In this document: one piece after another, positions 23,721 to 49,632 of the stretch | Layout of the letters: every line of letters starts with the position of its first letter | Position numbering within the stretch: the first letter of the stretch is position 1 | IMG/VR virus record: IMGVR_UViG_3300047552_000689 | Location: 1-56,432 of that record | Length of the DNA stretch: 56,432 nucleotides | Reading direction: 5' to 3' (one strand) | Source: a virus | Lineage: Duplodnaviria; Caudoviricetes | Made by a program: the position numbers and the translations under genes | Notes under the pieces: model-generated | The model's database searches: none | Told to the model about the DNA's origin: nothing | What the model saw: only the letters and a program-made list of their open reading frames with translations

Positions 23721-25175
23721 ATGACTAATCACCTCGGCCGGACCGAGCTCAGCACGAATATGACCAACAAGGTCGCTGCAATCAACAACAGCGACGGCAT
23801 CCTCGACGCGGCCATCACCTCGGCGCTCACTTTCACGTGGGCGGGCGCTGAGACTCTCAAGACCGCGTCCACGGTCCAGACTCAGCAGAACGTCGCCTTC
23901 GTCTTCGCGGGCTCCACCTCGGGCAGCCCCAGCTTCAAGTTCGGCAACATCCAGCGTGGCATGGTCGTCGTCGTGAACGACATGGCCCAGAACGTCACGG
24001 TCTCGGACTACGCTGGCACCGACTCCTACGTCGCCCTCGCTGGGACCACCACGGTCCTCTACATCGAGGACGATCGCCTCGAGACCATCGTCACCTCCAA
24101 CTCCGTCCCAGAGGCGGCCAACGACGGCGCGCGCTACGTCCGGCAGAGCCTCGGCTGGTCCGACTCTGGCGGCCTGGTCACGGTCGAGACGGGCACCACC
24201 GACTCGCTCACCACGGCAGACGTCGACGACACGATCCAGTACACCAACGCGGGCGCGATCACGGTCACGATCCCGCTGAACTCGTCCCAGGCGATCCGGG
24301 TGGGTGGCACCATCCGCCTCATTCAAGGCCCCTCTGCAGGCGTCGTCACCGCCTCGCCGACTGGTGGCGTCACCCTCCTGGGTGCCACTGCGACCACTGG
24401 CGCGAACACGCAGCTCCTGCTCATCAAGCTGGACACCGACACGTGGCTCGGCGTGGCCGCCTCCGGCATCAGCGACGCGACCAACGACGGCAACATCTAC
24501 GCGCGCCAGAGCGCGACCTGGACTGACATCGGTCAAAAGGTCAACACGACCGCCTCCTCGTCGATCACGCTGGCGCTCACGGACCGCAACGACACGATCA
24601 CCTGCACTGCCTCTGGGGCCATCACCTGTCAGCTGCCCCAGAACAGCACGACTGCCTTCCCCGTGGGCACCTGGATCCGGTTCATCCTCGGCACGGCAGG
24701 CACCTCGCTCACGCTCTCGGCGGGCACGGGTGCGACCGTCCGCGGAACCAAGCTGGTGGCCAATCGTCCCGGCGAGGAGCTGTTCGCCCTCAAGACGGAC
24801 ACCAACACCTGGTATGTCTTCCACGCGGACACTGGTGGCCTCTACAACGTGAGCGGCTTCTTCACCGCCGCGCCTGTGGCCTCCGAGCTGCTGCTCAAGC
24901 ATGTGTTCAGCGAGACGGTCTACTTCCCGGACAACTTCGCTGGCTCGGTCGGCCACGTGGGGACCAACCCCGCAGCCACGTTCGACTGTGACGTCAAGAA
25001 GAACGGCTCGAGCATTGGCACAATCAGTGTCAGCACTGGCGGTGCTGTCACATTCACTACCTCCGGCTCTGGTGAGGAGAGCTTCGCCTCTGGCGATCGT
25101 ATAGAGATTGTCGCTCCGGCCACTCCAGATGCGAGCGTGCTCAACTTCAGTTGGACTCTCAAGGGACGTAAGTGA
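23721..25175 (+). CDS. tail fibre with two foldon-like repeats
   Basis: Thr/Ser/Gly-rich; VPEAANDGARYVRQ...W and ISDATNDGNIYARQ...W lie 121 aa apart. Confidence 0.7.
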   Translation: MTNHLGRTELSTNMTNKVAAINNSDGILDAAITSALTFTWAGAETLKTASTVQTQQNVAFVFAGSTSGSPSFKFGNIQRGMVVVVNDMAQNVTVSDYAGTDSYVALAGTTTVLYIEDDRLETIVTSNSVPEAANDGARYVRQSLGWSDSGGLVTVETGTTDSLTTADVDDTIQYTNAGAITVTIPLNSSQAIRVGGTIRLIQGPSAGVVTASPTGGVTLLGATATTGANTQLLLIKLDTDTWLGVAASGISDATNDGNIYARQSATWTDIGQKVNTTASSSITLALTDRNDTITCTASGAITCQLPQNSTTAFPVGTWIRFILGTAGTSLTLSAGTGATVRGTKLVANRPGEELFALKTDTNTWYVFHADTGGLYNVSGFFTAAPVASELLLKHVFSETVYFPDNFAGSVGHVGTNPAATFDCDVKKNGSSIGTISVSTGGAVTFTTSGSGEESFASGDRIEIVAPATPDASVLNFSWTLKGRK

Positions 25176-36269: not shown

Positions 36270-36492
36270 GGGCGTGGCTCGAGCGCGTGCATGAGGATAT
36301 AACGCGAGTCGGCCTGCCTGTAGTTATGATGATAGTGAGGCGGCGGATGTCCAGACACCAGATGCTCGCGGTGGCAAGCACTCTAGAGCGTGTTGCAGCT
36401 GACATCAGATCACGCCTTGCTAGTTGAGACATGAGACATTCAGAATGGGAGCCCTGCACGTGATGCAGCAGATCAATTCAAGAGGTTGGGAA

Positions 36493-38226
36493 ATGTACGG
36501 ACCGCAGACGCCGCTCGGACAGGAGATTCATGCAAACAACTATCGTGAGGAGGGGGAGAGTTTCCGCGAGTACGGCAACCGAGTTGCCAGCGCGCTGACG
36601 GACGGGGCCGACGAGTTCCAACTCTTCCGCGACGACCTGCTCACGCAGCGGACGCTGCCCGGTGGTCGCATCCAGAAGGCGGCGGGCTCGATTCGTGGTG
36701 TCACGATGTATAACTGCTTCGTCTCTGGGACCATCGAGGACAGCTTCGTCTCCGGTCCAGGCAATATCATGCAGGCGCTCACCGAGAGCGTCACGACCAT
36801 GCGCCTCGGCGGTGGCATCGGCTACGAGTTCAGCACGCTCCGCCCCAAGAACGCGCCGATCAAGAAGCTCGGCTCGAAAAGCTCCGGGCCGCTCGCGTTC
36901 ATGGACATGTTCGACGCTGGCTGCGGCTGCGTCAAGTCGGCGGGCGATCGCCGTGGAGCCCAGATGGGCACCTTCGACATCCACCACCCGGACATCATGG
37001 ACTTCATCCACGCGAAGCAGGGGTCCGGTCGCTTCAAGAATTTCAACCTGTCCGTCCTCGTGACCGACGAGTTCATGGCCGCGCTCGACGCGCATCAGCC
37101 CTACGAGCTCCGCTTCGCCGGGGAGAGCTATGGGCAGGGTGATCCCAGGGTAGTGTGGGACGCGATCATGCGGTCGACCTACGACTGGGCCGAGCCGGGT
37201 GTGATCTTCATCGACCGGATCAACCAGCGGAACAACCTGTGGTACGCCGAGCGCATCCGTGCCACCAACCCCTGCGGCGAGCAGCCCCTCCCTCCATACG
37301 GGGCCTGCCTCCTGGGTTCGATCAACCTCACCAAGTTCGCCAACCGGGGCTTCGGTGGCCGCTGGGTGTTCGATTGGCAGGGCCTCGCCCAGGCCGCCGA
37401 GCGGTTCGTCCGCGCCCTCGACAACGTGGTCGACCGCAGCATCTACCCCCTCGAGCAGCAGCGTGCAGAGGCCCTCTCGAAGCGCCGCATGGGCATCGGG
37501 GTGACGGGCCTCGCCAATACCATCGAGGCTATGCTCGGCCGCCCTGCCTACGGCGAGGAGGAGTTCGTCGCCATCCAGGACGACATCCTCCGCACGATCG
37601 CCGAGGCCGCCTACAACACCTCCGTCGACCTGGCGAAGGAGCGCGGTCCCTTCCCGCTCTTCGACCGGGACAAGTACCTCTACGGAAACGAGGAGGCCTT
37701 CGCCCAGAGGCGGCTTCCGGAGTGGCTCAAGGAGAAGATCTGGAAGCACGGCATCCGGAACAGCCACCTCCTCTCGATCGCCCCGGCTGGCACGATCTCC
37801 ATCGTCGCGGACAACGTGAGCTCGGGCGTCGAGCCTGTGTTCCTCCACCGCTACGACCGGACGGTCATCACCCCTGCTGGGACCAAGGTCGAGACCGTCG
37901 AGGACTATGGCGTCCGGGTGTTCGGCATCGAGGGCAAGACGACCGAGCATGTCACCGTGGACGAGCACCTCGCCGTGCTGGCGAAGGCCGCCGAATGGGT
38001 TGACAGCGCCGTGTCGAAGACCGTCAACATCCCCGAGTCGTACGACTTCGAGGACTTCAAGAAGGTCTACCGCAAGGCCTACGATCTCGGGGCCAAGGGC
38101 TGCACGACCTTCCGCACTGGCGGGAAGCTCCAGGGCATCCTGCAGCCGACCAAGGAGGAGCCGAAGGAGGAGGCCGTCGAGGCCTGCTTCATCGACCCGG
38201 TGAGCGGCAAGCGCGAGTGCGCCTAG
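36493..38226 (+). CDS. nrdJ: ribonucleotide reductase, class II (B12-dependent)
   Basis: PGGR, NCFV, GGGIG, RRGAQMG, TNPCGEQPL, SIAPAGTIS, C-terminal Cys pair; no beta-subunit gene; frame opens at 36424. Confidence 0.85.
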   Translation: MYGPQTPLGQEIHANNYREEGESFREYGNRVASALTDGADEFQLFRDDLLTQRTLPGGRIQKAAGSIRGVTMYNCFVSGTIEDSFVSGPGNIMQALTESVTTMRLGGGIGYEFSTLRPKNAPIKKLGSKSSGPLAFMDMFDAGCGCVKSAGDRRGAQMGTFDIHHPDIMDFIHAKQGSGRFKNFNLSVLVTDEFMAALDAHQPYELRFAGESYGQGDPRVVWDAIMRSTYDWAEPGVIFIDRINQRNNLWYAERIRATNPCGEQPLPPYGACLLGSINLTKFANRGFGGRWVFDWQGLAQAAERFVRALDNVVDRSIYPLEQQRAEALSKRRMGIGVTGLANTIEAMLGRPAYGEEEFVAIQDDILRTIAEAAYNTSVDLAKERGPFPLFDRDKYLYGNEEAFAQRRLPEWLKEKIWKHGIRNSHLLSIAPAGTISIVADNVSSGVEPVFLHRYDRTVITPAGTKVETVEDYGVRVFGIEGKTTEHVTVDEHLAVLAKAAEWVDSAVSKTVNIPESYDFEDFKKVYRKAYDLGAKGCTTFRTGGKLQGILQPTKEEPKEEAVEACFIDPVSGKRECA

Positions 38227-38306: not shown

Positions 38307-38660
38307 ATGCCTGACGAACAATACCCAGGAATGCGCTCGCATCCAGGCTATCATCTGCTGCGTCAAGAGAAGCGACAGCTTGGAGATCTAATCTGGGATC
38401 TCAAGAACGGCGCCATCTACAAGTGGGATATCAACACCCCCTCTGGCCAGTCGTACTTGGCGAAGCTCCGGAACCAGGTTCGCCTGCTCCATATCACACA
38501 CCGCTACTTGCGCGGTCGCACGTATCGCGGCTGCGAGAGCAAGACGCACAACCGACTCTCGAACGAGTGGGTGGCGCGCATCGAGTTCCTTGCCAACCTC
38601 TACGGCGGGCCGCTCCACGGCGACATGCCTCCCGTGTCCGAGTGGGTCAAGGCCAACTGA
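38307..38660 (+). CDS. hypothetical protein
   Basis: R.LH....YLRGR.Y...E motif; coupled to the next gene. Confidence 0.55.
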   Translation: MPDEQYPGMRSHPGYHLLRQEKRQLGDLIWDLKNGAIYKWDINTPSGQSYLAKLRNQVRLLHITHRYLRGRTYRGCESKTHNRLSNEWVARIEFLANLYGGPLHGDMPPVSEWVKAN

Positions 38661-39235
38661 TGCTGAAGCCGATTCTCATCGGGCAGGCCCCTGGGCCGAA
38701 CACCGACCCAGCCCTCCCGCTATTCCCGCTCCCCAGCACATCCGCTGGGGGGCGGCTCTGCTCTGTCATGGGGCTCTGCTACAAGGACTACATCCGGCGC
38801 TTCGATCGCGCCAACGTCCTCGTCGAGTTCCCAGGGAGGCACAAGCGGGATGACAAGTTCCCGCTCCGTGATGCCAAGCTCGCCGCTCGATCGATGAAGC
38901 AGCTCCTCAAGGGCCGTCATGTCATCCTAGTCGGCCGCAACGTGGCAGCGGTGTTCAACGTGCTGGATCTCCCATTCCACCACGCGAGCGAATATCACGA
39001 TTGGTGCAAGACTCTCGCAGTCGTGCCCCACACCAGTGGTCGCAATCACTGGTACAACTCCGCTGCGAATCGTGAGGAGGCCCGGAGATTCTGGCTTCAA
39101 CACATTCCGGCTATTCTTGACACTAAGCTGTTGCTTTCGGCTGTCAGCCGGGGCACTTATATGCAACACCCGGTGCTGGGTGAGACAGGAGCAAGCTATG
39201 ACGACAGTCACGTATCAGGGCATCCAGTTCACTGA
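38660..39235 (+). CDS. uracil-DNA glycosylase superfamily protein
   Basis: LIGQAPG (motif A), AGGRL, VILVGR, VPHTSGRNHW (motif B). Confidence 0.7.
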   Translation: MLKPILIGQAPGPNTDPALPLFPLPSTSAGGRLCSVMGLCYKDYIRRFDRANVLVEFPGRHKRDDKFPLRDAKLAARSMKQLLKGRHVILVGRNVAAVFNVLDLPFHHASEYHDWCKTLAVVPHTSGRNHWYNSAANREEARRFWLQHIPAILDTKLLLSAVSRGTYMQHPVLGETGASYDDSHVSGHPVH

Positions 39236-39755
39236 ACAGATGCTCCAGGAGGAGAAGACCTCCGACCTGCTGAAGACCTACAACCGCATCGCCGAGGCGA
39301 ACGACGAGAAAGTCGTCAACAAGTTCGCCGACCACGCGACCGCTGTGAAGCGGACGTGGGCCATGCTCCAGAAGCACGGCAAGTCCGTGAAGAAAGAGGT
39401 CAAGGTCGCCACCGAGCGTCGTCTCCGGACGAAGCACTTCAACTATGTCGCAGTCGGCCAGCCCAAGCCTCGCCGCGAGTCCAGCGCCGACAACCCGGTG
39501 CTGCGCGACATGCTGCTGACTCGCCTGCTCACGCCAGAGGGCCTCAGCTTCAACCAGGCCAAGGAAGTCGTCGCCGAGTTCGACGAGCTTCGCGAGCGCC
39601 TCGGCAAGCCCGTCCGCAACGGCGGCGAGCATACCGTCGAGACGCGGGCCTACGAGGGCCTCCGCCTCATCCACTACTATCTCAACTACTCCCTGAAGCA
39701 GGACGGCGAGGGCGACGACGCGCCCATCCGCATCGTCGGCAACAGGAAGTCGTAG
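39198..39755 (+). CDS. hypothetical, possibly DNA-binding protein
   Basis: AGGAG RBS; YN......V.KFAD..TA.KR motif; basic linker. Confidence 0.6.
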   Translation: MTTVTYQGIQFTEQMLQEEKTSDLLKTYNRIAEANDEKVVNKFADHATAVKRTWAMLQKHGKSVKKEVKVATERRLRTKHFNYVAVGQPKPRRESSADNPVLRDMLLTRLLTPEGLSFNQAKEVVAEFDELRERLGKPVRNGGEHTVETRAYEGLRLIHYYLNYSLKQDGEGDDAPIRIVGNRKS

Positions 39756-40633
39756 TGCGGAACTACCAGCGCCTGAGCATCGAGGACTTCGGCGCGCATC
39801 TTCTCAAGACGGGCGACCTCGACCCGATCTACATCGCACTGCAGCGAATGCGACTCCCCGCTGGCCAGCTTCATCGCTGGCTGGCGGCCTACTGGTGCTT
39901 CTACCACGCGGGCGTCGCCTGCCACATGTCCGAGCTCCAGGGCGAGGACTACTGGCGTGAGATGCAGACAGCCACCGAGAACGTGCTCCCCGCCCCTCCT
40001 GGGACGAGGTGGCCCAGAGGTCACGAGCGTCGCCACTTCAGGGGCGAGCAGGGCAATCTCGCCATGCTGAGCCTCCGGTCTCGCTATCCCAACGACGCTG
40101 ACGACTGGCTGCTGACGATCCAGGAGAAGGCGCTTTCCAAGACTGGCACAGGCGCGCATGTACCATTCTCCACGATCTCCGAGATTGTGCAGGAGGAGCG
40201 CGGCTTCGGCCCTTGGATCTCGTTCAAGGTCGGCGACATGCTCGAGCGACTCGACCTGCTCAAGGTAGACTTCACCGAGGCCGAGGTGTTCATGTTCAAG
40301 GACCCCAGGGAGGCCGCGTTCCGGCTCTGGCGGGTCAAGGCTGGGCTGAGCGAGCACGCAATTCCCAAGAATCCTGGTGGTGTCATCACCGATGTGGTGA
40401 CCTACCTGACCGAGCACTTCAAGGACCACGCGGCACCGCCCCGCAAGGAGCGCCCTGTTGGTCTGCAAGAGGTCGAGACGATCCTCTGCAAGTGGAAGTC
40501 CCACATGAACGGACACTATCCGCTCTTCAACGACACGACTGAGATCCGCGCAGGCCTGCTCGAGTGGGATCACACGGAAACTGCTCGCCTGATGTTCAAC
40601 AAGATGCCAGAGGTGCATGATGTACTACCGTGA
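39755..40633 (+). CDS. amino acid:DNA transferase (aGPT-Pplase2/ADDT family)
   Basis: TGDLDP.Y, YWCFY, RG.ERRHFRG, FGPW..FK..DM.ER, QEVET.LCKWKSH.NGHY. Confidence 0.85.
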   Translation: MRNYQRLSIEDFGAHLLKTGDLDPIYIALQRMRLPAGQLHRWLAAYWCFYHAGVACHMSELQGEDYWREMQTATENVLPAPPGTRWPRGHERRHFRGEQGNLAMLSLRSRYPNDADDWLLTIQEKALSKTGTGAHVPFSTISEIVQEERGFGPWISFKVGDMLERLDLLKVDFTEAEVFMFKDPREAAFRLWRVKAGLSEHAIPKNPGGVITDVVTYLTEHFKDHAAPPRKERPVGLQEVETILCKWKSHMNGHYPLFNDTTEIRAGLLEWDHTETARLMFNKMPEVHDVLP

Positions 40634-40790
40634 TGAAGGACCAGACTTGACGTGGCTGCTCGCGTTCGTCGTGCTCATGATGATAGGTGCCGTGGTCCTT
40701 GGGACCGACGAGCAAGAGCAGCGCGTCGCCCGTGGCAAAGTAGACCGCGAGAACGTCCTGGTCGTCTATCCAGAGCAGCTTCGCCAATGA
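40617..40790 (+). CDS. small TM protein
   Basis: GAGG RBS; WLLAFVVLMMIGAVVLG. Confidence 0.5.
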   Translation: MMYYRDEGPDLTWLLAFVVLMMIGAVVLGTDEQEQRVARGKVDRENVLVVYPEQLRQ

Positions 40791-40894
40791 AGTGGTGGAT
40801 GCTCTGGTGGGCTGGCGCGATCTACGCAATCTTGCAGCTAGGCTTCGTCCTTGGGACAGCCTGGATGCTACTTAATGGAGTGAAGCTGCCATGA
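40787..40894 (+). CDS. small TM peptide (35 aa)
   Basis: ATGA coupling on both sides; MKWWMLWWAGAIYAILQLGFVLG. Confidence 0.5.
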   Translation: MKWWMLWWAGAIYAILQLGFVLGTAWMLLNGVKLP

Positions 40895-41697
40895 AAATCG
40901 GCATCGTCGGCAACGGCCTATTCGGGTCCATCATCGGGGACACCTTGCTCCGACAAGGGCATGAAGTCCACAGGTACGATATCGTCCGGCCGAACAATGG
41001 CTCGCAACCCGCTGCTTGCCTCATGAAGCCGGGCTGGCTCAGCAAGGTGCCGAGGCTCAACGAGGTCTTCGACCTGCTCGACGAGCTCTATGGCTTGCAA
41101 GAGTTGACCTTCACGGCGAACGGCATGCTCGACTTCCAAGTGAAGTGGGTGAATCCGCGTCGAATCCTTCACCCGCTTCTATGCGCCACAGAGATCTCCC
41201 ATGTCAACACTGATGGTGTGATCGAAGACAAGCGTGGCGTCGAGATCAAGTTCGACCGCGTGATCGTCGCTGCTGGCGTCTGGACCAAGGAGCTCTGCCC
41301 CTGGGTCCCAGTGGAGGCGCGGTGGGGGATGGCCCTGCTCTGGAGGAACCACCAGGAGAGCGTTCTGCCCTCGACGATCAGCCAGTGGGCTCCGTACAAG
41401 CAGCTCATCGGCTTCCAGCGGGGCGACGGTTTCTGGGGCGGCGACGGCAGCGCACTGAAGAGGTGGGAGCACGAGGCCGAGCAGCGCGTCTACGATCGCA
41501 TCTACGACCACTTCGACCTCGGCCCACACCCTGTCAAGTTGATAGGGCAACGACCGTATGTGGCGCAAACTACACCCGGTCACCCCTGCTGGCTAGAGCA
41601 GCGGGACAAGCTGATTATTGCAACAGGAGGAGCGAAAAATGGAACTGCGGCTGCGGGATTCTGTGCTCTCACCATCCGGGAATGGCTCCGTGGTTGA
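40891..41697 (+). CDS. FAD-dependent oxidoreductase (glycine/D-amino-acid oxidase-like)
   Basis: IVGNGLFG Rossmann motif, VAAGVW, GQRPY, TGGAKNG. Confidence 0.85.
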   Translation: MKIGIVGNGLFGSIIGDTLLRQGHEVHRYDIVRPNNGSQPAACLMKPGWLSKVPRLNEVFDLLDELYGLQELTFTANGMLDFQVKWVNPRRILHPLLCATEISHVNTDGVIEDKRGVEIKFDRVIVAAGVWTKELCPWVPVEARWGMALLWRNHQESVLPSTISQWAPYKQLIGFQRGDGFWGGDGSALKRWEHEAEQRVYDRIYDHFDLGPHPVKLIGQRPYVAQTTPGHPCWLEQRDKLIIATGGAKNGTAAAGFCALTIREWLRG

Positions 41698-42166
41698 GCT
41701 CGGACGACCCATCGTCTGCACCTTCGCCAAGCCGACCGACCATGTCAAGCTGGTGAAGCTCGCCAAGACGAGCCCCTACACGAGCCACTTCAGCAACCGG
41801 ATCATGTTCTCGAGTGACGCGGCCTACGCCAAGGGCTGGATCCGCATGCTGTACGACTCGGCCGACCCCGACAACCCGATGGCGCTCACCTGCGTCCGGC
41901 ACAAGTCGCGCGAGCCCAAGTCGACGGCGCTCTACTTCCTGGTGGTCCGGCCCGACCTGCGCGGTCGAGGCTACGGCGACTTGATGATCTTCGACCTGGT
42001 GCAGCAGTCACCATCCAAGATCATCCAGCTCAACGTCGCCAAGGACAACGAGTCGGCCATCCGCTTCTACAAGCGTCACGGATTTGATACCATCGGAGAG
42101 TCGTTGTACGACAAGGACGGCAAGCCGCATGGTTGGCTCATGGAGTTGAAGAGTGCATCCGATTGA
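41690..42166 (+). CDS. GNAT acetyltransferase
   Basis: LVVRPDLRGRGYG (motif A), NESAIRFYKRHGF (motif B). Confidence 0.88.
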   Translation: MVELGRPIVCTFAKPTDHVKLVKLAKTSPYTSHFSNRIMFSSDAAYAKGWIRMLYDSADPDNPMALTCVRHKSREPKSTALYFLVVRPDLRGRGYGDLMIFDLVQQSPSKIIQLNVAKDNESAIRFYKRHGFDTIGESLYDKDGKPHGWLMELKSASD

Positions 42167-42458
42167 CAAGTTCCGCAAAGAAGCAGTAGAGTCCCACCTG
42201 TTCGTCTCTGACCGCGAGGTCGAGTCGTTCATCGAGGGCACACTCGCCTCTCGTCGCGTCTCCTACCGCGCGCAGGAGTTGACATACCCAGAGGCTCAGC
42301 TAGGTGATGACCTGCTGGAACTACTGGAGCAGTTGAAGGGAATACGTGATGATCATCAACTTGAGAGGGACCTCGGGCTCAGGGAAATCCACCCTGATGC
42401 GCCACGTCATGGACTGCTACACCGGATCAAGGCTGCGCTTCAAGCGCGATGGTCGTAA
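42153..42458 (+). CDS. hypothetical protein
   Basis: GTG start; 3' third overlaps the kinase gene. Confidence 0.4.
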   Translation: MHPIDKFRKEAVESHLFVSDREVESFIEGTLASRRVSYRAQELTYPEAQLGDDLLELLEQLKGIRDDHQLERDLGLREIHPDAPRHGLLHRIKAALQARWS

Positions 42459-42924
42459 GCAGCCTCTGGGCTACCTCCTGGGACGTGGTGACAACGTCGA
42501 GCCGGGCAAGTCGCTCTTCATCCCAGGGCACTACGAGGTGGCCTGTGGAGGCTGCGACACGCTAGATGGCTATGACACGATCTACGGCCTGGTCCGCACG
42601 GCCCACGCCGCTGGACACGATGTCCTCTACGAGGGCCTCCTGATCAGCGGCGAGAGCGCCCGGCCGATCGCCCTGCACAACGAGGGCTACCCGATCCAGG
42701 TGATCGCCCTCAATACACCAATCGACGTCTGCATCGACTCGATCAACGCGAGGCGGCAGGCGAAGAAGGGGCCGGACGCGCCTCCGGTCAAGGAGCGCAA
42801 CACGATCGCCAAGGCGCGGGCGGTAGAGATCGCAATGGAGAAGATGAAGGAGGCAGGAATACCATGTCAATGGGCAAGTCGGGACGACGCGCTAATCCTG
42901 ATAAGGAACGCGCTCAGAGTATGA
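42346..42924 (+). CDS. P-loop kinase associated with T hypermodification
   Basis: RGTSGSGKST, G.Y...CGGCD, DVLYEG. Confidence 0.8.
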   Translation: MMIINLRGTSGSGKSTLMRHVMDCYTGSRLRFKRDGRKQPLGYLLGRGDNVEPGKSLFIPGHYEVACGGCDTLDGYDTIYGLVRTAHAAGHDVLYEGLLISGESARPIALHNEGYPIQVIALNTPIDVCIDSINARRQAKKGPDAPPVKERNTIAKARAVEIAMEKMKEAGIPCQWASRDDALILIRNALRV

Positions 42925-43082
42925 ACAACACCCCGCTCGCACGGATCGTGTGCGGGCTTCAAGCACAGGTGAAGACGATGGAGCGCCAGCTCCGCCGCCA
43001 GGATATCGACATCAACAACCTCCGCAAGCAGCTCGACGATTTCAGGCGCGAGCAGAACAGAGGCTACCTGGGCTATGACTGA
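42921..43082 (+). CDS. small coiled-coil protein
   Basis: ATGA coupling; heptad pattern. Confidence 0.5.
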   Translation: MNNTPLARIVCGLQAQVKTMERQLRRQDIDINNLRKQLDDFRREQNRGYLGYD

Positions 43083-43950
43083 CACGTTCGAGAAGAACAT
43101 CGAGGGCTTCTTCTGGCTGGCGCGAGAGCGGCAGGAGATGAAGCGCAAGCGGGAGGCCTACCTGCCTCCCCCTTGGACCAAGGACTACGTGCTGGCCAAC
43201 TATCGCTTCTGCAACGTGCACAGACGAGACGACAAGGTCAGCGCGTGGATCATCGACAACATCTACGAACCGCTGCATGGCTCTCCAGCCATCTTCATGG
43301 CAGCCTATGTGGCACGGTGGTTCAACAAGATCGAGACGCTCGACCTCATCAAGGATGAGATGAAGGGCGAGTTCGACCTGATGCGGATGAAGGAGATCCT
43401 CCACCCCGTCTTCAGCCAGGGCAACCCGATCTTCGGCTCGGCCTACATCATTCAGAGCCCCACCGGGGAGAACAAGCTTGACGGCATCCTCTGGGCGATC
43501 GGCAACGTGACCAAGCGGTGGACCGAGGGCTACAAGATCGCCACCGAGACCAAGTCCATGGCACAGACGCACGCTTGGCTCCAGCAGTTCCCCCACATGG
43601 GGCCATTCATGGCGTATCAGGTGGTCTGCGACCTGACCTACACGCCGATCCTCGAGAACGCGGTCGACAAGATGGAGTGGACCTGCGCTGGCCCAGGAGC
43701 GGCCCGAGGCCTGGGGTGGCTCTACCACGACCTCGAGGGGGCCTTCAACTACAACGGGGCCAAGGACCAGCTCATCATGAAGGCGCACATGCACGAGGTG
43801 CTAAAGTTGAGCCAGCAAGAAGTCTACTGGCCTAGCATTTGGGGTGCGTGGGAGTTGGCCACTGTTCAGCACTGGTCCTGCGAGTACGACAAGTGGAGGC
43901 GTGGCCACAGTGGCCAGTCTCTGAAGCGGAGGTATGAAGCATGTACGTGA
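43075..43950 (+). CDS. 5-hmdU DNA kinase family (aGPT-Pplase1)
   Basis: ER......PPWT.D.VL..YRFCNV.R.DD.VS, G.FMAYQ...DL, GPGA.RGL, CEYDK. Confidence 0.85.
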   Translation: MTDTFEKNIEGFFWLARERQEMKRKREAYLPPPWTKDYVLANYRFCNVHRRDDKVSAWIIDNIYEPLHGSPAIFMAAYVARWFNKIETLDLIKDEMKGEFDLMRMKEILHPVFSQGNPIFGSAYIIQSPTGENKLDGILWAIGNVTKRWTEGYKIATETKSMAQTHAWLQQFPHMGPFMAYQVVCDLTYTPILENAVDKMEWTCAGPGAARGLGWLYHDLEGAFNYNGAKDQLIMKAHMHEVLKLSQQEVYWPSIWGAWELATVQHWSCEYDKWRRGHSGQSLKRRYEACT

Positions 43951-44984
43951 TCGAGGGGCGCAACGCCCAGTCTATCCTGCCAGAGGCGATCCGCCTTCTG
44001 GACATCCACGGAGTCGACCGTGACAGCCGAAACGGCCCGGTGCGCATGTTCCCCATGCCCGCCGCGATCGTCTACGCCCGGCCGACCGAGCGTGTGATCT
44101 TCTGGGAGGAGCGGGATGCAAACCCGTTCTTCCACTTCATGGAGTGCCTGTGGATGATCAACGGGCGCAACGACGTCGCCTGGCTCGACACCTACAGCGG
44201 TGGCATCAAGCGGTACAGCGACGATGGCAAGACCTACCACGGGGCCTACGGTCACCGCTGGCGTCGGCACTTCCAGATGGACCAGCTCATGATGGCCGTC
44301 GAAGAGCTGAAGCGCGACCACAACAACCGTCGCGTCTACATCGCGATGTGGGATCCTGAGTACGACTTGGCCAAGGAGGGGAAGGACTTCCCCTGCAACG
44401 TGGGCCTCACCTTCCAGGTGAACTTCCTCGGGGCGCTTGACATGGTCGTTCACAACCGATCCAACGACCTGGTCTGGGGCGCGCTCGGCGCGAACGCGGT
44501 GCACTTCAGCTTCCTCCAAGAGGTGGTGAGCGCGATGGTCGGAGTCCCAGTGGGTGGCTACTGGCAGGTGAGCAGCAATCTCCATGCCTACCACGACACC
44601 TACAAGAAGGTCGAGGTCCTGAGGCACGCGGCACCCGACCCCTACAGCACCTCCCGTCCCTGGGACCCCTACGCCTACACGACCGACCCTGTGGAACCGT
44701 TCCCGATCATGAGCGTGGCCCCAGACGTCTGGTTCCAGGACCTGGGCATATTCATGAAGGAGGGGCCGATCGTCGGCTTCCGCGATCCGTTCTTCAGGCA
44801 GGTGGTCACGCCGATGTACATGGCTCACAAGGCCTACCGCGACCGCACTGATCCTGACCGCCACCATCGCGCAATTGAGATACTGTCGACCCAGTGTCGG
44901 GCATCAGATTGGCGCAAGGCCGGAGTGGAGTGGCTCGAGCGTCGACTGAAGGCCTGGCTCGAGAGTGACAAGGAGCGCCTATGA
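43941..44984 (+). CDS. thymidylate synthase homolog, likely dUMP hydroxymethylase
   Basis: RDANPFFH, YS.DG....GAYG.RW, DFPCN, RSND..WG..GAN (Asn = dUMP-type), NLHAY; cluster context. Confidence 0.85.
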   Translation: MYVIEGRNAQSILPEAIRLLDIHGVDRDSRNGPVRMFPMPAAIVYARPTERVIFWEERDANPFFHFMECLWMINGRNDVAWLDTYSGGIKRYSDDGKTYHGAYGHRWRRHFQMDQLMMAVEELKRDHNNRRVYIAMWDPEYDLAKEGKDFPCNVGLTFQVNFLGALDMVVHNRSNDLVWGALGANAVHFSFLQEVVSAMVGVPVGGYWQVSSNLHAYHDTYKKVEVLRHAAPDPYSTSRPWDPYAYTTDPVEPFPIMSVAPDVWFQDLGIFMKEGPIVGFRDPFFRQVVTPMYMAHKAYRDRTDPDRHHRAIEILSTQCRASDWRKAGVEWLERRLKAWLESDKERL

Positions 44985-45205
44985 GACTGCTAAAGCTATT
45001 CACTGTCGACATTCTCACGTTTTGCGCGTGGCTCCTCCTGTTCTTGATCATGGGTCTCGGCTTCGCGCTGATATCGAGCTCGCTGTTCAGCACAGCCTTC
45101 CCACTCGCCGGGCTCGTCTACGGCATCCTCGGGTGGCTGGCGGGTGACGCTGTGCGGCCTGTCTACCTCTGGCTCAGGGAGCAGTTCCATGTTGACCAAT
45201 CTTGA
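44981..45205 (+). CDS. two-TM membrane protein
   Basis: AAGGAG RBS; two long hydrophobic stretches. Confidence 0.6.
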   Translation: MRLLKLFTVDILTFCAWLLLFLIMGLGFALISSSLFSTAFPLAGLVYGILGWLAGDAVRPVYLWLREQFHVDQS

Positions 45206-45764
45206 CATCAAGAATCGAGCCTACGCCATCCTCGGCGCTCGCGCTGGTGGACGAGTGGAGCGGTGCCACAGCATCCCACACCAGGGCTCCTACAGCAACG
45301 CCGCCCACTCCTGGGGCGTCGCCATGCTCATGCAGCAGATCTGGCCGGAGGACTTCCCTCGGCTGGCACTGGCCTGCCTGACCCACGACATTCCAGAGTT
45401 CTGGGTGGGCGACATTCCCGCGCCGACGATGCGCGCGGTCCCAGGGTTGAAGGAGTCCCTGGTGCAGATCGAGGACAGGTGCCTCGAGCGCCTCGAGCTC
45501 CCTGGGCTCGTGAACTTGAGCGAGGAGGACTACCGGAAGCTCAAGGCCTGTGACTGGCTCGAGTTCTGGCTCTGGTGCAAGGATCAAGAGTACATCGGCA
45601 ACGGCTTTGTCAAGGTCTCCAAGATCGAGATCGAGAGCTACATCGAGACGATGAAGCTGCCGAACCCGGCGGACTGGCTCTACGGAGTGCTGAAAGACAT
45701 GGACCCCCTGGTCTCCCAGGGGCCTGTCCTGCGCGACATCATCGGGAGGATGCAAGATGGGTGA
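45189..45764 (+). CDS. HD-domain deoxynucleotide phosphohydrolase (YfbR-like)
   Basis: V.RCH, S.A.HSW, THD.PE...GD.PAP, K..D.LE. Confidence 0.82.
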   Translation: MLTNLDIKNRAYAILGARAGGRVERCHSIPHQGSYSNAAHSWGVAMLMQQIWPEDFPRLALACLTHDIPEFWVGDIPAPTMRAVPGLKESLVQIEDRCLERLELPGLVNLSEEDYRKLKACDWLEFWLWCKDQEYIGNGFVKVSKIEIESYIETMKLPNPADWLYGVLKDMDPLVSQGPVLRDIIGRMQDG

Positions 45765-46341
45765 GCACTACGACATCGGTGGTGGTCGAGAGCGATACAT
45801 GGCCGACAAGGCCAAGAGGTTTCGAGAGAGTAACAAGCTCCTTGAACACACTATCAATCTAAACTTGAAGGCAGCGGTCGAGTCCGCGCAGAGGAGAAAG
45901 AAGATGACACACTACGAGGATGACCGCAGCACTTACGAGGCTGGCATCAAGAGCAAGGCCAACGAGAAGCAAGTCGGCGGGAAGCACTACAAGTCTGGCT
46001 ATCAGCACTGGGACCTGGTGCTGGACTTCGGGCTCCACTACCTGGAGGGCTGCTCAACCAAGTACGTCACGCGGCGCAAGGGCAGCCGGGGCGAGGACAT
46101 CGGCAAGGCGATCCACTACATCGAGAAGCTGATGGAGGAGCTCACCGCGCGCAACTTCCCCATCCGCATCGAGGGTCGACTGTCCAAGGAGACCGACTCG
46201 TTCCGTGAGATGAAGCTCAAGGAGTACGCGCTCGCCAACAACCTCACCTTCCGTGAGCATGTGATCATCAAGAACATCGTCTATCACATGGACTACGACC
46301 AGGCGCTCGCGCACATGAAAGAATTGCAGAAGGAGGTTTGA
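45757..46341 (+). CDS. DUF3310 protein (putative nucleotide kinase; start may be 45904)
   Basis: QVGG.HYK...QHWD....Y.EG...KY..R...ED..KA.HY. Confidence 0.72.
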   Translation: MGEHYDIGGGRERYMADKAKRFRESNKLLEHTINLNLKAAVESAQRRKKMTHYEDDRSTYEAGIKSKANEKQVGGKHYKSGYQHWDLVLDFGLHYLEGCSTKYVTRRKGSRGEDIGKAIHYIEKLMEELTARNFPIRIEGRLSKETDSFREMKLKEYALANNLTFREHVIIKNIVYHMDYDQALAHMKELQKEV

Positions 46342-46342
46342 A

Positions 46343-46867
46343 ATGCCAATTCGTGACGGCAACATGCCGATTCAAATGCCGCGTCATCGCAAGCAAGCAG
46401 AGTGCGACAAGAGCAAGACGCAGAGAATCAAGTGGCGGACATCTACCATCGGTCAGCTCGCCAAGGTGATCGCCCACGCGGCTGCAGTCTCCAAGGCTGG
46501 CAGCCAGGACGCTCTCCTGCGGAAGCGGGATTGGGCCAAGGAGTTCGGTGTCACAGGAGCCTACCTCCTGCATGTCACCTTGTTCTTCCTGCCTCAGTTC
46601 GAGCGGGAGATGGAGCGGGCCTACCCCGAGATCAGCCCCAGTGAGCGGATGGTCGTGGTTGCGAGGCAGCTTCGGCATCGAGTGTACTACATGTATCACA
46701 AGGACGAGGATGTCGCGACACTGACGGGCAAGCATGCCATCCCGCAGATCAGCGACGAGCATCCGCAGCACGCCTTGATCACCAAGACCAGGTGCTTCAC
46801 TCCCGAGAACATCGAGCTCGGTGAGCGTATCTGGGCCAGGGGCCTCCCGTATCGCCTGGAGAACTAA
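46343..46867 (+). CDS. hypothetical protein
   Basis: AGGAGG RBS; TAATG coupling to polA. Confidence 0.6.
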   Translation: MPIRDGNMPIQMPRHRKQAECDKSKTQRIKWRTSTIGQLAKVIAHAAAVSKAGSQDALLRKRDWAKEFGVTGAYLLHVTLFFLPQFEREMERAYPEISPSERMVVVARQLRHRVYYMYHKDEDVATLTGKHAIPQISDEHPQHALITKTRCFTPENIELGERIWARGLPYRLEN

Positions 46868-48909
46868 TGGCCAAGAAGTCGACAATGCGCAGCGTGGGCG
46901 GGCTTCAACTCCCGCTCATCGCTCCTGAGTGCACGTGGAAGATCCCGAGCCTCTCAGACCTCCCGCCTGATTGGAACGTCTCGAAGCGAGTCGGCTTCGA
47001 CGTGGAGACCAGGGACGAGGACCTGAAGACGCTGGGCATCGGCGTGCGCCGTCCTGGGAACTACATGGTTGGCTACAGCTTCGCCTTCGAGGACGGGCCG
47101 AGCTACTACGTCCCGCTCCGTCACGAGGGCGGTGGCAACATGGAGCACACCGAGGCGGCTCTCCAGTATCTCCGCGACCAGACTCGGAACTACAAGGGCA
47201 TCGTCGTCGGGGCGAACATACAGTACGATCTCGACTACCTCATGGAGGAGGGCGGGAACTTTGACCAGGCCAAGTGGATTCGAGACGTCCAGATCGCCGA
47301 TCCGCTCATCTACGAGCTCCACCAGTCCTACTCCCTCAAGTCCATCGCCGAGCGCCTGAGCGTCGGCACCAAGGACCAAGCCATGCTGGAGGAGGCGGCG
47401 CGGGCCTACGGTCTGGACCCCAAGAACGGCCTCTGGCGCCTCCCTGGGCAGTACGTGGGGCAATACGCCGCCACCGACGCGGCCCTCCCTCTGACTATCC
47501 TGCGCCTTCAGGAGCGGCGCATCGACGCTATGGACCTCTGGGACATCTACAACCTGGAGTCCCAAGTCACGCCCGTGCTCGTGAAGATGAGGCGGCGGGG
47601 CATCCGGATCGACTTCCAGCAGCTCGAGACCATGGAGAACTGGGCCTCGGAGGAGGAGCACAAGGCTCTGAACGAGGTCGAGCGGATCACTGGCTACCAA
47701 GTCGGCTTCGGCAACGTCTGGAAGTCGGAGGCGATGGCAGAGCCTCTCCGGAGGATCGGCCTCACAATCCCGGTGACGGCCCAGGGGAAGGACTCGATCG
47801 ACAAGGACTTCATGTCCGGGATCGACCACCCGGTGGCCAAGCATCTGGCTCGCGCCCGCAAGGTGAACAAGCTGAGAACGACCTTCGCCGCGTCCGTGCG
47901 ACGGTACATGGTCAACGGTCGCATCCACTGCACCTTCAACCAGATTCGCGGCGACGAGGGCGGTGCCCGGTATGGTCGCCTCTCCTGCTCGGACCCGAAC
48001 CTCCAGCAGCAGCCCTCGAGAGACGAGTTCGCCAAGCCCTGGCGGAAGAGCTACCTCCCCGAGGAGTGGGGCCTCTGGTGCTCGAACGACTACAGCCAGC
48101 AGGAGCCTCGATGGACGACGCACTTCGCCGCGTCGTTCCCGTTCGACCACGCTCATATTCGAGAGTCAGCTCTCAGGGCGGCCAAGGTCTACAACGACGA
48201 CCCGAACGCTGATAACCATGACATGATGACCCGCATCGTCTTCGGTGACGAGTGGGTGGCCCAGGCCGACAAGGACGCCTACAAGGCGGCGCGGACGAGC
48301 TGCAAGATCATCTACCTCGGCCTGTGCTACGGCGAGGGCGGGGCCAAGCTCTGCGATGACCTCGGCCTCCCGACGCGGTACGCGGTGGCCTACAAGGATG
48401 TCAACCGGACGCGCGTGATCGAGTACTTTGAGACCGAGGCCGACGCCTTCCGCCGGAACAACGAGGTGGCAGGCTTCTGCTGGCGCGCGGCTGGCGAGGA
48501 GGGACAGCGCATCCTCGACCAGTTCAACGAGAACGCGCCTCACATCGGAGCTCTGGCCAAGGAGGCCACCAAGATCGCCGATGGCCGAGGCTACATCACC
48601 ACCATCCTCGGACGCCGCCTCAACTTCGAGCCAGAGAGCGGTGGCAAGGGTGGCTACAGGTGGACTCACAAGACCCTGAACCGCATCATCCAGGGCTCCT
48701 CGGCCGACCAGACCAAGAAGGCCATCGTCGAGATCGACCGGGCCGGGCATTTCGTCCAGCTCCAGGTCCACGACGAGATTGCCTGCACCGTCAAGGATGA
48801 GAGCGAGGCGCGGGCCATCGCGGATATCATGCGCACCTGCGTCCCGGCGCTCGTGCCGTTCAAGGTTGACACAGAAATCGGCTCCTCCTGGGGCCATAGC
48901 ATGGGATGA
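46867..48909 (+). CDS. polA: family A DNA polymerase with 3'-5' exonuclease
   Basis: FDVET (ExoI), N..YD (ExoII), YA..D (ExoIII), GRLS...PNLQQ, DYSQQEPR, K....GLCYG, QVHDE. Confidence 0.95.
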   Translation: MAKKSTMRSVGGLQLPLIAPECTWKIPSLSDLPPDWNVSKRVGFDVETRDEDLKTLGIGVRRPGNYMVGYSFAFEDGPSYYVPLRHEGGGNMEHTEAALQYLRDQTRNYKGIVVGANIQYDLDYLMEEGGNFDQAKWIRDVQIADPLIYELHQSYSLKSIAERLSVGTKDQAMLEEAARAYGLDPKNGLWRLPGQYVGQYAATDAALPLTILRLQERRIDAMDLWDIYNLESQVTPVLVKMRRRGIRIDFQQLETMENWASEEEHKALNEVERITGYQVGFGNVWKSEAMAEPLRRIGLTIPVTAQGKDSIDKDFMSGIDHPVAKHLARARKVNKLRTTFAASVRRYMVNGRIHCTFNQIRGDEGGARYGRLSCSDPNLQQQPSRDEFAKPWRKSYLPEEWGLWCSNDYSQQEPRWTTHFAASFPFDHAHIRESALRAAKVYNDDPNADNHDMMTRIVFGDEWVAQADKDAYKAARTSCKIIYLGLCYGEGGAKLCDDLGLPTRYAVAYKDVNRTRVIEYFETEADAFRRNNEVAGFCWRAAGEEGQRILDQFNENAPHIGALAKEATKIADGRGYITTILGRRLNFEPESGGKGGYRWTHKTLNRIIQGSSADQTKKAIVEIDRAGHFVQLQVHDEIACTVKDESEARAIADIMRTCVPALVPFKVDTEIGSSWGHSMG

Positions 48910-48916
48910 GGTGAAA

Positions 48917-49183
48917 ATGATCTCGCTTGAAGAATACCAGCAGTGGATGAAGTACGCGAAGCCAGGAGACTGGATCACGTATCATCGCGGTCCCCACCTG
49001 TTCGGGATCAACGCGAAGAAGAAGGACGCGGCCAACGAGGTCTACAAGGCGGCCATGGACGGAGAGCTTTTCGTCGCCCAGAGGCGAGTCGCAACCGAGA
49101 AGCCGGGCATCTTCGAGTTCGAGTATCGTGCGATGAAGCTCAACACAGACCTCAAGAAGAAGGCCAAGGCATGGGACCGATAG
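48917..49183 (+). CDS. hypothetical protein (A.PGD...YHRG motif)
   Basis: GAGGTG RBS; MISLEEYQQWMKYAKPGDWITYHRG. Confidence 0.55.
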   Translation: MISLEEYQQWMKYAKPGDWITYHRGPHLFGINAKKKDAANEVYKAAMDGELFVAQRRVATEKPGIFEFEYRAMKLNTDLKKKAKAWDR

Positions 49184-49632
49184 ACAAATGGGACCTCAGA
49201 TTCCTGAAACTAGCAGATCACGTGGCTCAGTGGAGCAAAGATCCCAGCACGAAAGTGGGGGCAGTGATCGTAGACCGCGAGCGCCGGGTGATCTCCCTGG
49301 GCTACAATGGCTTCCCTCGTCGAGTGCACGATCTCGAGGAGCGATACAGCACGAGAGAGCTGAAGTACGAGCTTATTGTGCATGCCGAGGCGAACGCCTT
49401 GCTTACCTCTCCGAGCTCAGTGATGGGCTGCACCCTGTATACAACCCCTCTCCCTACGTGCGCCCGGTGCGCTGGTCTAGTGATTCAAGCTGGAATCGCT
49501 CGAGTGGTGTCAATGACAAAGAGTGACAGCAATATCAACTGGGCCACCTCTTGCGACTTGGCATCACAGATGTACGAGGAAGCAGGGGTAGAGTTCAAGG
49601 TCTATGTCACAGAGGAGAGGCTTGTTGGATGA
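49171..49632 (+). CDS. dCMP deaminase
   Basis: SKDPSTKVGA, GYNG, HAEANA, PTCARC. Confidence 0.92.
   Translation: MGPIDKWDLRFLKLADHVAQWSKDPSTKVGAVIVDRERRVISLGYNGFPRRVHDLEERYSTRELKYELIVHAEANALLTSPSSVMGCTLYTTPLPTCARCAGLVIQAGIARVVSMTKSDSNINWATSCDLASQMYEEAGVEFKVYVTEERLVG

Follow-up and report, generated by a model that had tools for sequence, protein, structure and literature searches.

A predicted PaMx11-type pathway of thymidine hypermodification in the complete tailed-phage record IMGVR_UViG_3300047552_000689

Two groups of Pseudomonas phages, represented by PaMx11 (Abidjanvirus) and by M6 and YuA (Yuavirus), carry the closest described counterparts of the DNA-modification genes considered here. 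For PaMx11, Lee et al. 2021 (PMC8989533) list gp46 as a glycine:DNA transferase, gp47 as a flavin-dependent lyase, gp48 as an acetyltransferase and gp49 as the kinase of 5-hydroxymethyl-deoxyuridine (5-hmdU) in DNA. In that work gp46, gp47 and gp48 were assayed in vitro with M6 gp54 as the kinase, the role of gp49 being listed only, and the successive products were N-alpha-glycinylthymidine (315 u), 5-aminomethyl-deoxyuridine (5-NmdU, 257 u) and 5-acetylaminomethyl-deoxyuridine (5-AcNmdU, 299 u) (PMC8989533). M6 and YuA, the phages of 5-aminoethyl-deoxyuridine (5-NedU), tailor the glycine adduct by a radical S-adenosylmethionine (SAM) isomerase and a pyridoxal-phosphate (PLP) decarboxylase; M6 virions contain canonical thymidine together with a fifth nucleoside that replaces ~30% of the thymidine (PMC5889632). 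Here we analyze IMG/VR record IMGVR_UViG_3300047552_000689 (Duplodnaviria; Caudoviricetes), a complete virus record of 56,432 bp with ~62% G+C and nearly all genes on the + strand. The whole of this stretch is referred to below as the window. Its nucleotide-metabolism and DNA-modification genes form an unbroken run at 39.2–49.6 kb, which most likely encodes a working PaMx11-type pathway with 5-AcNmdU beside thymidine as its predicted end product.

A preliminary description, made from the letters of the sequence, had placed a complete thymidine hypermodification cluster of this type at 39755–46341 (+). Searches of the + strand proteins against Pfam, PHROGs and solved structures recovered the members named there, namely the transferase, the flavin adenine dinucleotide (FAD) enzyme, the GNAT protein, the kinase, aGPT-Pplase1, the thymidylate synthase (TS)-like enzyme and the HD protein, as well as the dCMP deaminase noted at 49171. 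The transferase start proposed at 39755 is also exact; it is a GTG codon that shares 1 base with the TAG stop of the preceding gene. The genes concerned are as follows:

39755–40633, + strand: amino acid:DNA transferase (AADT, aGPT-Pplase2 or PUGT), predicted to be glycine-specific; PF18724, E 1e-19.
40891–41697, + strand: FAD-dependent N-alpha-glycinylthymidine oxidase/lyase, homologue of gp47 (NGTO); matches 8z2o and 8z79, E 7e-37.
41639–42166, + strand: GNAT acetyltransferase, homologue of gp48; PF00583, E 6e-11.
42346–42924, + strand: P-loop 5-hmdU DNA kinase (5-HMUDK), homologue of gp49; Zeta_toxin-like Pfam match, E 1e-6.
43075–43950, + strand: aGPT-Pplase1 (HMUDK_hel) paralogue of the transferase, homologue of gp50; PF18723, E 2.7e-49.
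43941–44984, + strand: TS-family enzyme, predicted dUMP hydroxymethylase; PF00303, E 5e-20; phrog_5131, E 1e-123.
45189–45764, + strand: HD-domain hydrolase, YfbR-like 5'-deoxynucleotidase, homologue of gp52; PF12917, 31.5 bits, above the cut-off of 25.9.
45757–46341, + strand: homologue of gp53, weakly DUF3310- or T7 gp1.7-like, candidate deoxynucleoside monophosphate (dNMP) kinase; phrog_5839 (function unknown), E 3.7e-27.
46867–48909, + strand: family A DNA polymerase, homologue of gp55; 52% identity to PaMx11 gp55 over 673 residues.
49171–49632, + strand: dCMP deaminase, homologue of gp56; PF00383, E 2.7e-18; phrog_174, E 2.7e-44.

The block is collinear with PaMx11 gp45–gp59, and 14 window proteins could be matched at 23–52% identity, the lowest being the ribonucleotide reductase (23%) and the gp45 counterpart (26%), with the remaining proteins at 34–52%. 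The shared order runs gp45-like protein, transferase, flavoenzyme, GNAT, kinase, Pplase1, TS-like enzyme, HD protein, gp53-like protein, polymerase, dCMP deaminase, gp57-like protein and primase. Because all of the cluster genes stand in the PaMx11 order, their co-occurrence is not a matter of chance. The window differs from PaMx11 in five extra small open reading frames (ORFs), a longer GNAT, a gene with a uracil-DNA-glycosylase (UDG) fold that the fetched PaMx11 stretch lacks and another type of capsid protein. The closest relative found is the uncultivated contig IMGVR_UViG_3300015606_000302 (L016, identical to L035), with 45–76% identity per protein: 52% for the flavoenzyme, 58% for the transferase, 65% for the kinase, 71% for the polymerase and 76% for the ribonucleotide reductase. 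It shares with the window the flavoenzyme and GNAT set, the UDG-fold gene and an ORF that fills the gap between GNAT and kinase. That the cluster might be a decayed or silent relic in a phage with canonical virion DNA is hardly credible, given that all the genes are intact ORFs whose GC pattern is of coding type, that the catalytic residues are conserved and that the same set has been kept in this 52–76% identical relative.

Among solved structures, the transferase matches 25qc_A (E 9e-87) and 8z2m_A (E 3e-82); its identity is 48% to PaMx11 gp46 and 50% to the YuA enzyme (143 of 283 aligned columns). In their structural study of gp46 and gp47, Wen et al. 2024 (PMC11472151) list the residues involved in binding DNA, metal, glycine and FAD. 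The window transferase keeps 19 of the 21 named for gp46, including Cys247, put forward as the nucleophile, Glu243 and Thr244, which bind the metal, and Asp24, Trp146 and Lys150, which contact glycine (gp46 numbering); the two changes are Leu to Gly at a main-chain contact and Lys261 to Asn. Li et al. 2026 (PMC13458397) solved YuA Pplase2 with 5-hmdU DNA and glycine, delineated a glycine pocket consisting of D24, E96, K159, K248, Y257 and D262, and reported that introducing Lys and Tyr at two pocket positions makes a diamine transferase use glycine. All six pocket residues are present in the window enzyme. The putrescine enzyme gp109 of PhiW-14, taken as a control, differs at three of the seven pocket and clamp columns examined, having Tyr in place of the clamp Trp and Gly and Asp at the two switch positions, in agreement with statements in both structure papers (PMC11472151, PMC13458397). 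Among 30 transferases, comprising that of the window, the M6-type enzyme of YuA and those of 28 loci with an adjoining flavoenzyme homologue (a few of them fetched twice), the complete set of six was kept in 29, the exception having Cys in place of Lys248.

Because the glycine-pocket residues are kept in the window whereas the PhiW-14 enzyme departs from them, the donor amino acid is most probably glycine. The preliminary description had regarded both the amino-acid and the acyl donor as beyond what sequence can tell, which holds for the acyl donor but no longer for the amino acid in view of the described pocket (PMC13458397). Donors across the family do include serine, putrescine, 1,3-diaminopropane and glycine (PMC8989533; PMC13458397), and the window enzyme shares only ~48–50% identity with the two that use glycine, so that use of another amino acid or amine might be imagined. 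This is nevertheless highly improbable, since the kept residues include the Lys/Tyr pair that suffices for diamine-to-glycine conversion and the adjoining glycine-adduct flavoenzyme retains its carboxylate-binding Arg; moreover, an N-linked alpha-amino acid of any kind would leave the same 5-NmdU after oxidative cleavage.

The flavoenzyme is firmly identified through its match to the solved structure of PaMx11 gp47, despite a Pfam DAO score (24.4 bits) below the cut-off of 27.9; it also matches phrog_16743 (E 3e-36). At 36% identity to gp47, it keeps nine of the 13 named residues, among them W51, Y180, Q182, R242, Y244 and K268. The residues that cage the flipped base (Trp51, Tyr180, Gln182 and Lys268) are thus conserved, as is Arg242, the residue proposed in gp47 to bind the carboxylate of glycine (PMC11472151). 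The N-terminal Gly-rich Rossmann motif is invariant in the flavoenzyme alignment.

The distribution of these enzymes was surveyed in deposited and uncultivated viruses. In the phage collection, a transferase homologue occurs in 93 records and a flavoenzyme homologue in 20, namely 17 Pseudomonas phages, Stenotrophomonas phage Sonora, phage Simon and Rhizobium phage RHph_TM26. A single-sequence flavoenzyme query of viral contigs returned one distant locus only, and an alignment query was used instead; in IMG/VR the flavoenzyme was found in 30 loci. Another scan, whose pattern included the glycine-pocket Lys, retained 80 transferase loci; it is therefore biased to glycine-type enzymes and provides no control on how widely the pocket is conserved. 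Pooling gave 87 distinct transferase contexts, a sample biased by the choice of loci through the flavoenzyme or the glycine-type motif: 14 have the flavoenzyme with GNAT (including the window, PaMx11 and Epa5), 30 the flavoenzyme only, 24 PLP and radical SAM enzymes, three a radical SAM enzyme only, one a PLP enzyme only and 13 none of these, two contexts being too short. In many flavoenzyme loci that lack GNAT (L011, L013, L017, L006, L113 of phage Simon and others), ~1.7–2.5 kb of other genes precede the kinase; these genes probably encode other tailoring steps on 5-NmdU.

The window GNAT is 39–41% identical to PaMx11 gp48 (E 2e-27), occupies the same cluster position and has an ATG at 41639 preceded by an AGGAGG ribosome-binding site. 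A variant of the pathway would follow the same route to 5-NmdU and then diverge, the GNAT using another acyl-CoA or another acceptor, so that the DNA would contain a different N-acyl-aminomethyl-deoxyuridine or plain 5-NmdU. The limited identity to gp48 and the N-terminal extension leave room for such a variant, as does an acyl specificity that is unreadable from sequence, and the excess of flavoenzyme contexts without GNAT (30 against 14 with it) indicates that ending or branching at 5-NmdU is common. We nonetheless consider it distinctly unlikely here: the GNAT stands exactly where gp48 does and has gp48 as its best match, its nearest relatives lie in other loci with flavoenzyme and GNAT, and acetyl-CoA is the default donor of the GNAT superfamily. 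Acetylation to 5-AcNmdU is accordingly kept as the preferred reading of the last step.

The window shares with M6 and YuA the kinase, the glycine transferase, the Pplase1 paralogue, the TS-like enzyme and the HD protein, and has the flavoenzyme and GNAT instead of the radical SAM and PLP enzymes. In tblastn searches of the whole 56.4-kb genome with YuA gp11 and gp12 (the PLP and radical SAM enzymes), the best E-values were 0.95 and 0.34, as anticipated by the preliminary description, which had seen neither enzyme. Judged by gene content, the M6 route is excluded in this genome. The complete PaMx11-type pathway proposed at the outset is thus upheld by the synteny of gp46–gp53, polymerase and deaminase, by the conserved residues of transferase and flavoenzyme, and by the lack of any match to the PLP and radical SAM enzymes of YuA.

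The kinase aligns with PaMx11 gp49 at 50% identity over 188 residues (E 2e-50), the Walker A motif included, and is predicted to be the 5-hmdU DNA kinase. The name "terminase small subunit", attached to this family in phrog_800 and in several deposited annotations, was rejected as a propagated misannotation.

The pre-replicative genes are consistent with a supply of 5-hmdU nucleotides. The TS-like enzyme is 50% identical to PaMx11 gp51 and 52% to the YuA gp17 region, gp17 being annotated as a putative deoxyuridylate hydroxymethyltransferase. Its nearest solved relative is the CMP 5-hydroxymethylase MilA (E 8e-22, versus 2e-10 for true TS), and it scored far under the cut-off in all NCBIfam TS equivalogs (best 66 bits versus 174.55). 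In MilA an Asp selects cytosine, and uracil-specific enzymes of the superfamily carry Asn at this position; the window enzyme has Asn aligned with that Asp. These features fit a predicted dUMP hydroxymethylase rather than a true TS. The HD hydrolase matches phrog_6047 (E 2e-39) and shares 37% identity with PaMx11 gp52, and the dCMP deaminase is 51% identical to gp56. The gp53-like protein shows 34% identity to PaMx11 gp53 and matches phrog_236, "nucleotide kinase" (E 4.7e-7). Its earlier label, DUF3310, stands in part only: the Pfam family gave no match in 45757–46341 even at E ≤ 10, and the label is weakly favored by PHROGs, by 44% identity to a DUF3310-annotated coding sequence of RHph_TM26 and by a single motif shared with T7 gp1.7 in hhalign (31 columns, probability 6%, E 0.006). 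The roles of the HD and gp53-like proteins in what follows are those we infer.

By homology to the in vitro work on PaMx11 and M6 enzymes, the following mechanism may be proposed. Before replication, the dCMP deaminase would supply dUMP, which the TS-like enzyme would hydroxymethylate to 5-hmdUMP; phosphorylation by the gp53-like protein and by host kinases would yield the triphosphate, the HD hydrolase would remove competing thymidine nucleotides, and the phage polymerase would put 5-hmdU into DNA. After replication, the P-loop kinase would phosphorylate the hydroxymethyl group. The transferase would then flip the base, expel the phosphate via a Cys–C6 adduct and join glycine by its amine to give N-alpha-glycinylthymidine, the flavoenzyme would oxidize the N–C-alpha bond of the glycine to yield 5-NmdU and glyoxylate, and the GNAT would acetylate the amine to 5-AcNmdU. 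On the analogy of M6, the modification would occupy only part of the thymidine positions and would block host nucleases. The preliminary description had foreseen hmdU together with 5-AcNmdU; the second of these remains the probable product, and hmdU is unlikely at the remaining positions, which would rather be thymidine if the M6 virions are a guide (PMC5889632).

Several points weigh against the proposed pathway and its end product. The window proteins are only 36–50% identical to the characterized enzymes. In the flavoenzyme four named gp47 residues are changed (F52L, R181K, N205R and R210A), three of which contact the DNA backbone, and the two structure papers differ on how glycine is placed in the transferase pocket (PMC11472151, PMC13458397). 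The N-terminus of the GNAT is ~23 residues longer than that of gp48 and its acyl donor cannot be read from sequence, the assignment of the gp53-like protein as a dNMP kinase is weak, and five small ORFs in the cluster have neither a PaMx11 counterpart nor a known role. For PaMx11 itself, virion DNA was unobtainable for Lee et al. 2021, so that their work did not establish 5-AcNmdU as a native base (PMC8989533). A 2025 preprint states that Ab18 carries 5-AcNmdU and gives Lee et al. as its source; our literature search found no report of 5-AcNmdU measured in virion DNA.

A quick maximum-likelihood tree of the transferases, with Shimodaira–Hasegawa-like approximate likelihood ratio test (SH-aLRT) support only, places the window as sister to L035 (= L016; SH-aLRT 97) and not with the PaMx11/Epa5 clade. 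Tailoring types are interleaved across this tree, with 33 changes against a minimum of 6. Among phages with an alphaproteobacterial host, RHph_TM26 has a flavoenzyme (39% identity) and a transferase (35%), together with the kinase, Pplase1, TS-like enzyme, DUF3310 protein, polymerase and deaminase. Its flavoenzyme gene lies before that of the transferase, a coding sequence annotated as polynucleotide kinase/phosphatase stands between them, and a GNAT homologue was not found within the fetched stretch.

The Pplase1 paralogue raises a further question. It is 40% identical to PaMx11 gp50, and sequence searches gave no solved relative for it or for the kinase. The top structural match of its AlphaFold model (predicted local distance difference test, pLDDT, 93.8) is PaMx11 gp46, 8z2n_B (Z 12.4, root-mean-square deviation 3.7 over 224 aligned residues); helix-hairpin-helix DNA glycosylases come next, at Z ~10. 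These Z scores come from re-alignment of Foldseek's own list, in which no match reached E ≤ 0.001, and among all-helical proteins Z below ~13 may mean a common arrangement only. A weak hhalign alignment (E 6e-4, probability 28%) lays a Gly-Pro-Phe segment of Pplase1 on the FGPW wedge of the transferase and pairs C269, which none of the 22 homologues aligned has changed, with the catalytic Cys. The M6 counterpart, gp55, is dispensable for glycinylation, and Lee et al. 2018 called the step from hmdU to thymidine unknown. Because M6 virions have thymidine at ~70% of the thymidine positions and this step is unexplained, a thymidine-forming role may be considered: beyond acting as a helical accessory of the kinase, Pplase1 might work on flipped-out 5-phosphomethyl-deoxyuridine, perhaps restoring thymidine at unmodified positions. 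We rate this as tentative and rather unlikely. No reductant-binding domain is visible, SP10 has the domain fused to its kinase, and the hhalign probability is only 28%. If the idea were true, Pplase1 activity would set the fraction and identity of the positions that stay modified; the question spans the whole family and is not particular to this window.

The lineage of the phage is mixed. Megablast of window positions 1–25000 and blastn of the cluster against deposited phages gave coverages of at most 3% and at most 23%, respectively; no near-identical phage thus turned up in these searches, from which records of the window's own genome may have been absent. Both the large terminase, at ~60% identity to Abidjanvirus and Yuavirus phages, and the replication genes have their nearest relatives in Pseudomonas phages. 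This terminase and the collinear replication module may point to Mesyanzhinovviridae, the YuA/PaMx11-like siphoviruses; the capsid protein is instead 66% identical to that of JG012/NP1-type phages, which we take to be members of Queuovirinae. In the tail-fibre gene (23721–25175, + strand), the C-terminal 110 residues (373–483) have matches in 12 phage records, all 12 of them from phages of Alphaproteobacteria (Sphingomonas 4, Caulobacter 4, Loktanella 2, Erythrobacter 1 and PhiJL001 1). A Queuovirinae-related capsid protein is described for the alphaproteobacterial member PhiJL001 in the Lydia paper (PMC11946847). The genome is mosaic, because its tail fibre, terminase and replication genes, and capsid point to different phage groups. 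A scan of genome contigs with the endolysin, aimed at the host, yielded one irrelevant partial match. An alphaproteobacterial host, as the preliminary description had assumed, is therefore plausible from the tail-fibre domain, although the terminase and replication genes lie nearest to phages of Pseudomonas.

The remaining genes in and next to the cluster are the following:

39198–39755, + strand: conserved gene with no known function, counterpart of PaMx11 gp45 and YuA gp08, directly upstream of the transferase.
40617–40790 (57 aa) and 40787–40894 (35 aa), + strand: two tiny predicted membrane ORFs between transferase and flavoenzyme.
42153–42458, + strand: 101-aa ORF that fills the 180-nt gap between GNAT and kinase and shares 112 nt, in another frame, with the kinase gene.
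42921–43082, + strand: 53-aa coiled-coil ORF between the kinase and Pplase1 genes.
44981–45205, + strand: 74-aa predicted membrane ORF, read from the sequence.

A homologue of the 39198–39755 gene was found by tblastn just 5' of the transferase in most fetched loci, of PaMx11 type as well as M6 type, with 71% identity in L016. Its product has no Pfam family, and the accessible text of the papers on the PaMx11 and M6 pathways does not mention it as a pathway member. The two tiny membrane ORFs are translationally coupled through ATGA start/stop overlaps at both junctions and have no homologue in the fetched loci at E ≤ 0.01, L016 included; in PaMx11 the transferase and flavoenzyme genes abut without them. 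The 101-aa ORF shows a coding-like codon-position GC pattern in the gap and has a homologue in L016/L035 (46%, E 4e-13), with no Pfam or PHROG family. Weak coiled-coil Pfam matches are all that the 53-aa ORF returned, with no homologue in the fetched loci, and no family was found for the 74-aa ORF. A promoter-like TTGACA-18-TAGAGT lies at 42163–42192; in the overall scan for promoters and terminators, the number of sites was not above that in shuffled sequence. No tRNA genes were found in the 56,432-bp window.

Further upstream, a 191-aa gene (38660–39235, + strand) lies 0.5 kb 5' of the transferase, and its predicted model (pLDDT 84.5) has a fold of the UDG superfamily. Foldseek matched it to UdgX, TDG, MUG and SMUG1 with probabilities of 0.97–1.0 and template modelling (TM) scores of 0.38–0.57, SMUG1 being lowest, and PF03167 is present in some of its database homologues. 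The gene also occurs in L016, L007 and L028, whereas nothing in the PaMx11 stretch that was fetched matched it. Brig2, a host defence that is UDG-like, has been reported in a 2025 preprint to target M6, YuA and Ab18. A single-chain ribonucleotide reductase (36445–38226, + strand; PF02867, E 3e-107) is 54% identical to the corresponding region of L003 (YuA) versus 23% to PaMx11 NrdA; by sequence, this part of the module is of YuA type and not of PaMx11 type.

The cluster is a distant example of a known system, and its chemistry is not new. It extends the PaMx11-type cassette of flavoenzyme and acetyltransferase to a lineage that shares 34–52% protein identity with the characterized cluster, and the glycine pocket conserved in so distant a homologue is a useful data point for donor prediction in this enzyme family. 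If the phage were in culture, it would offer, after PaMx11, a further phage in which 5-AcNmdU might be demonstrated as a base native to virion DNA.

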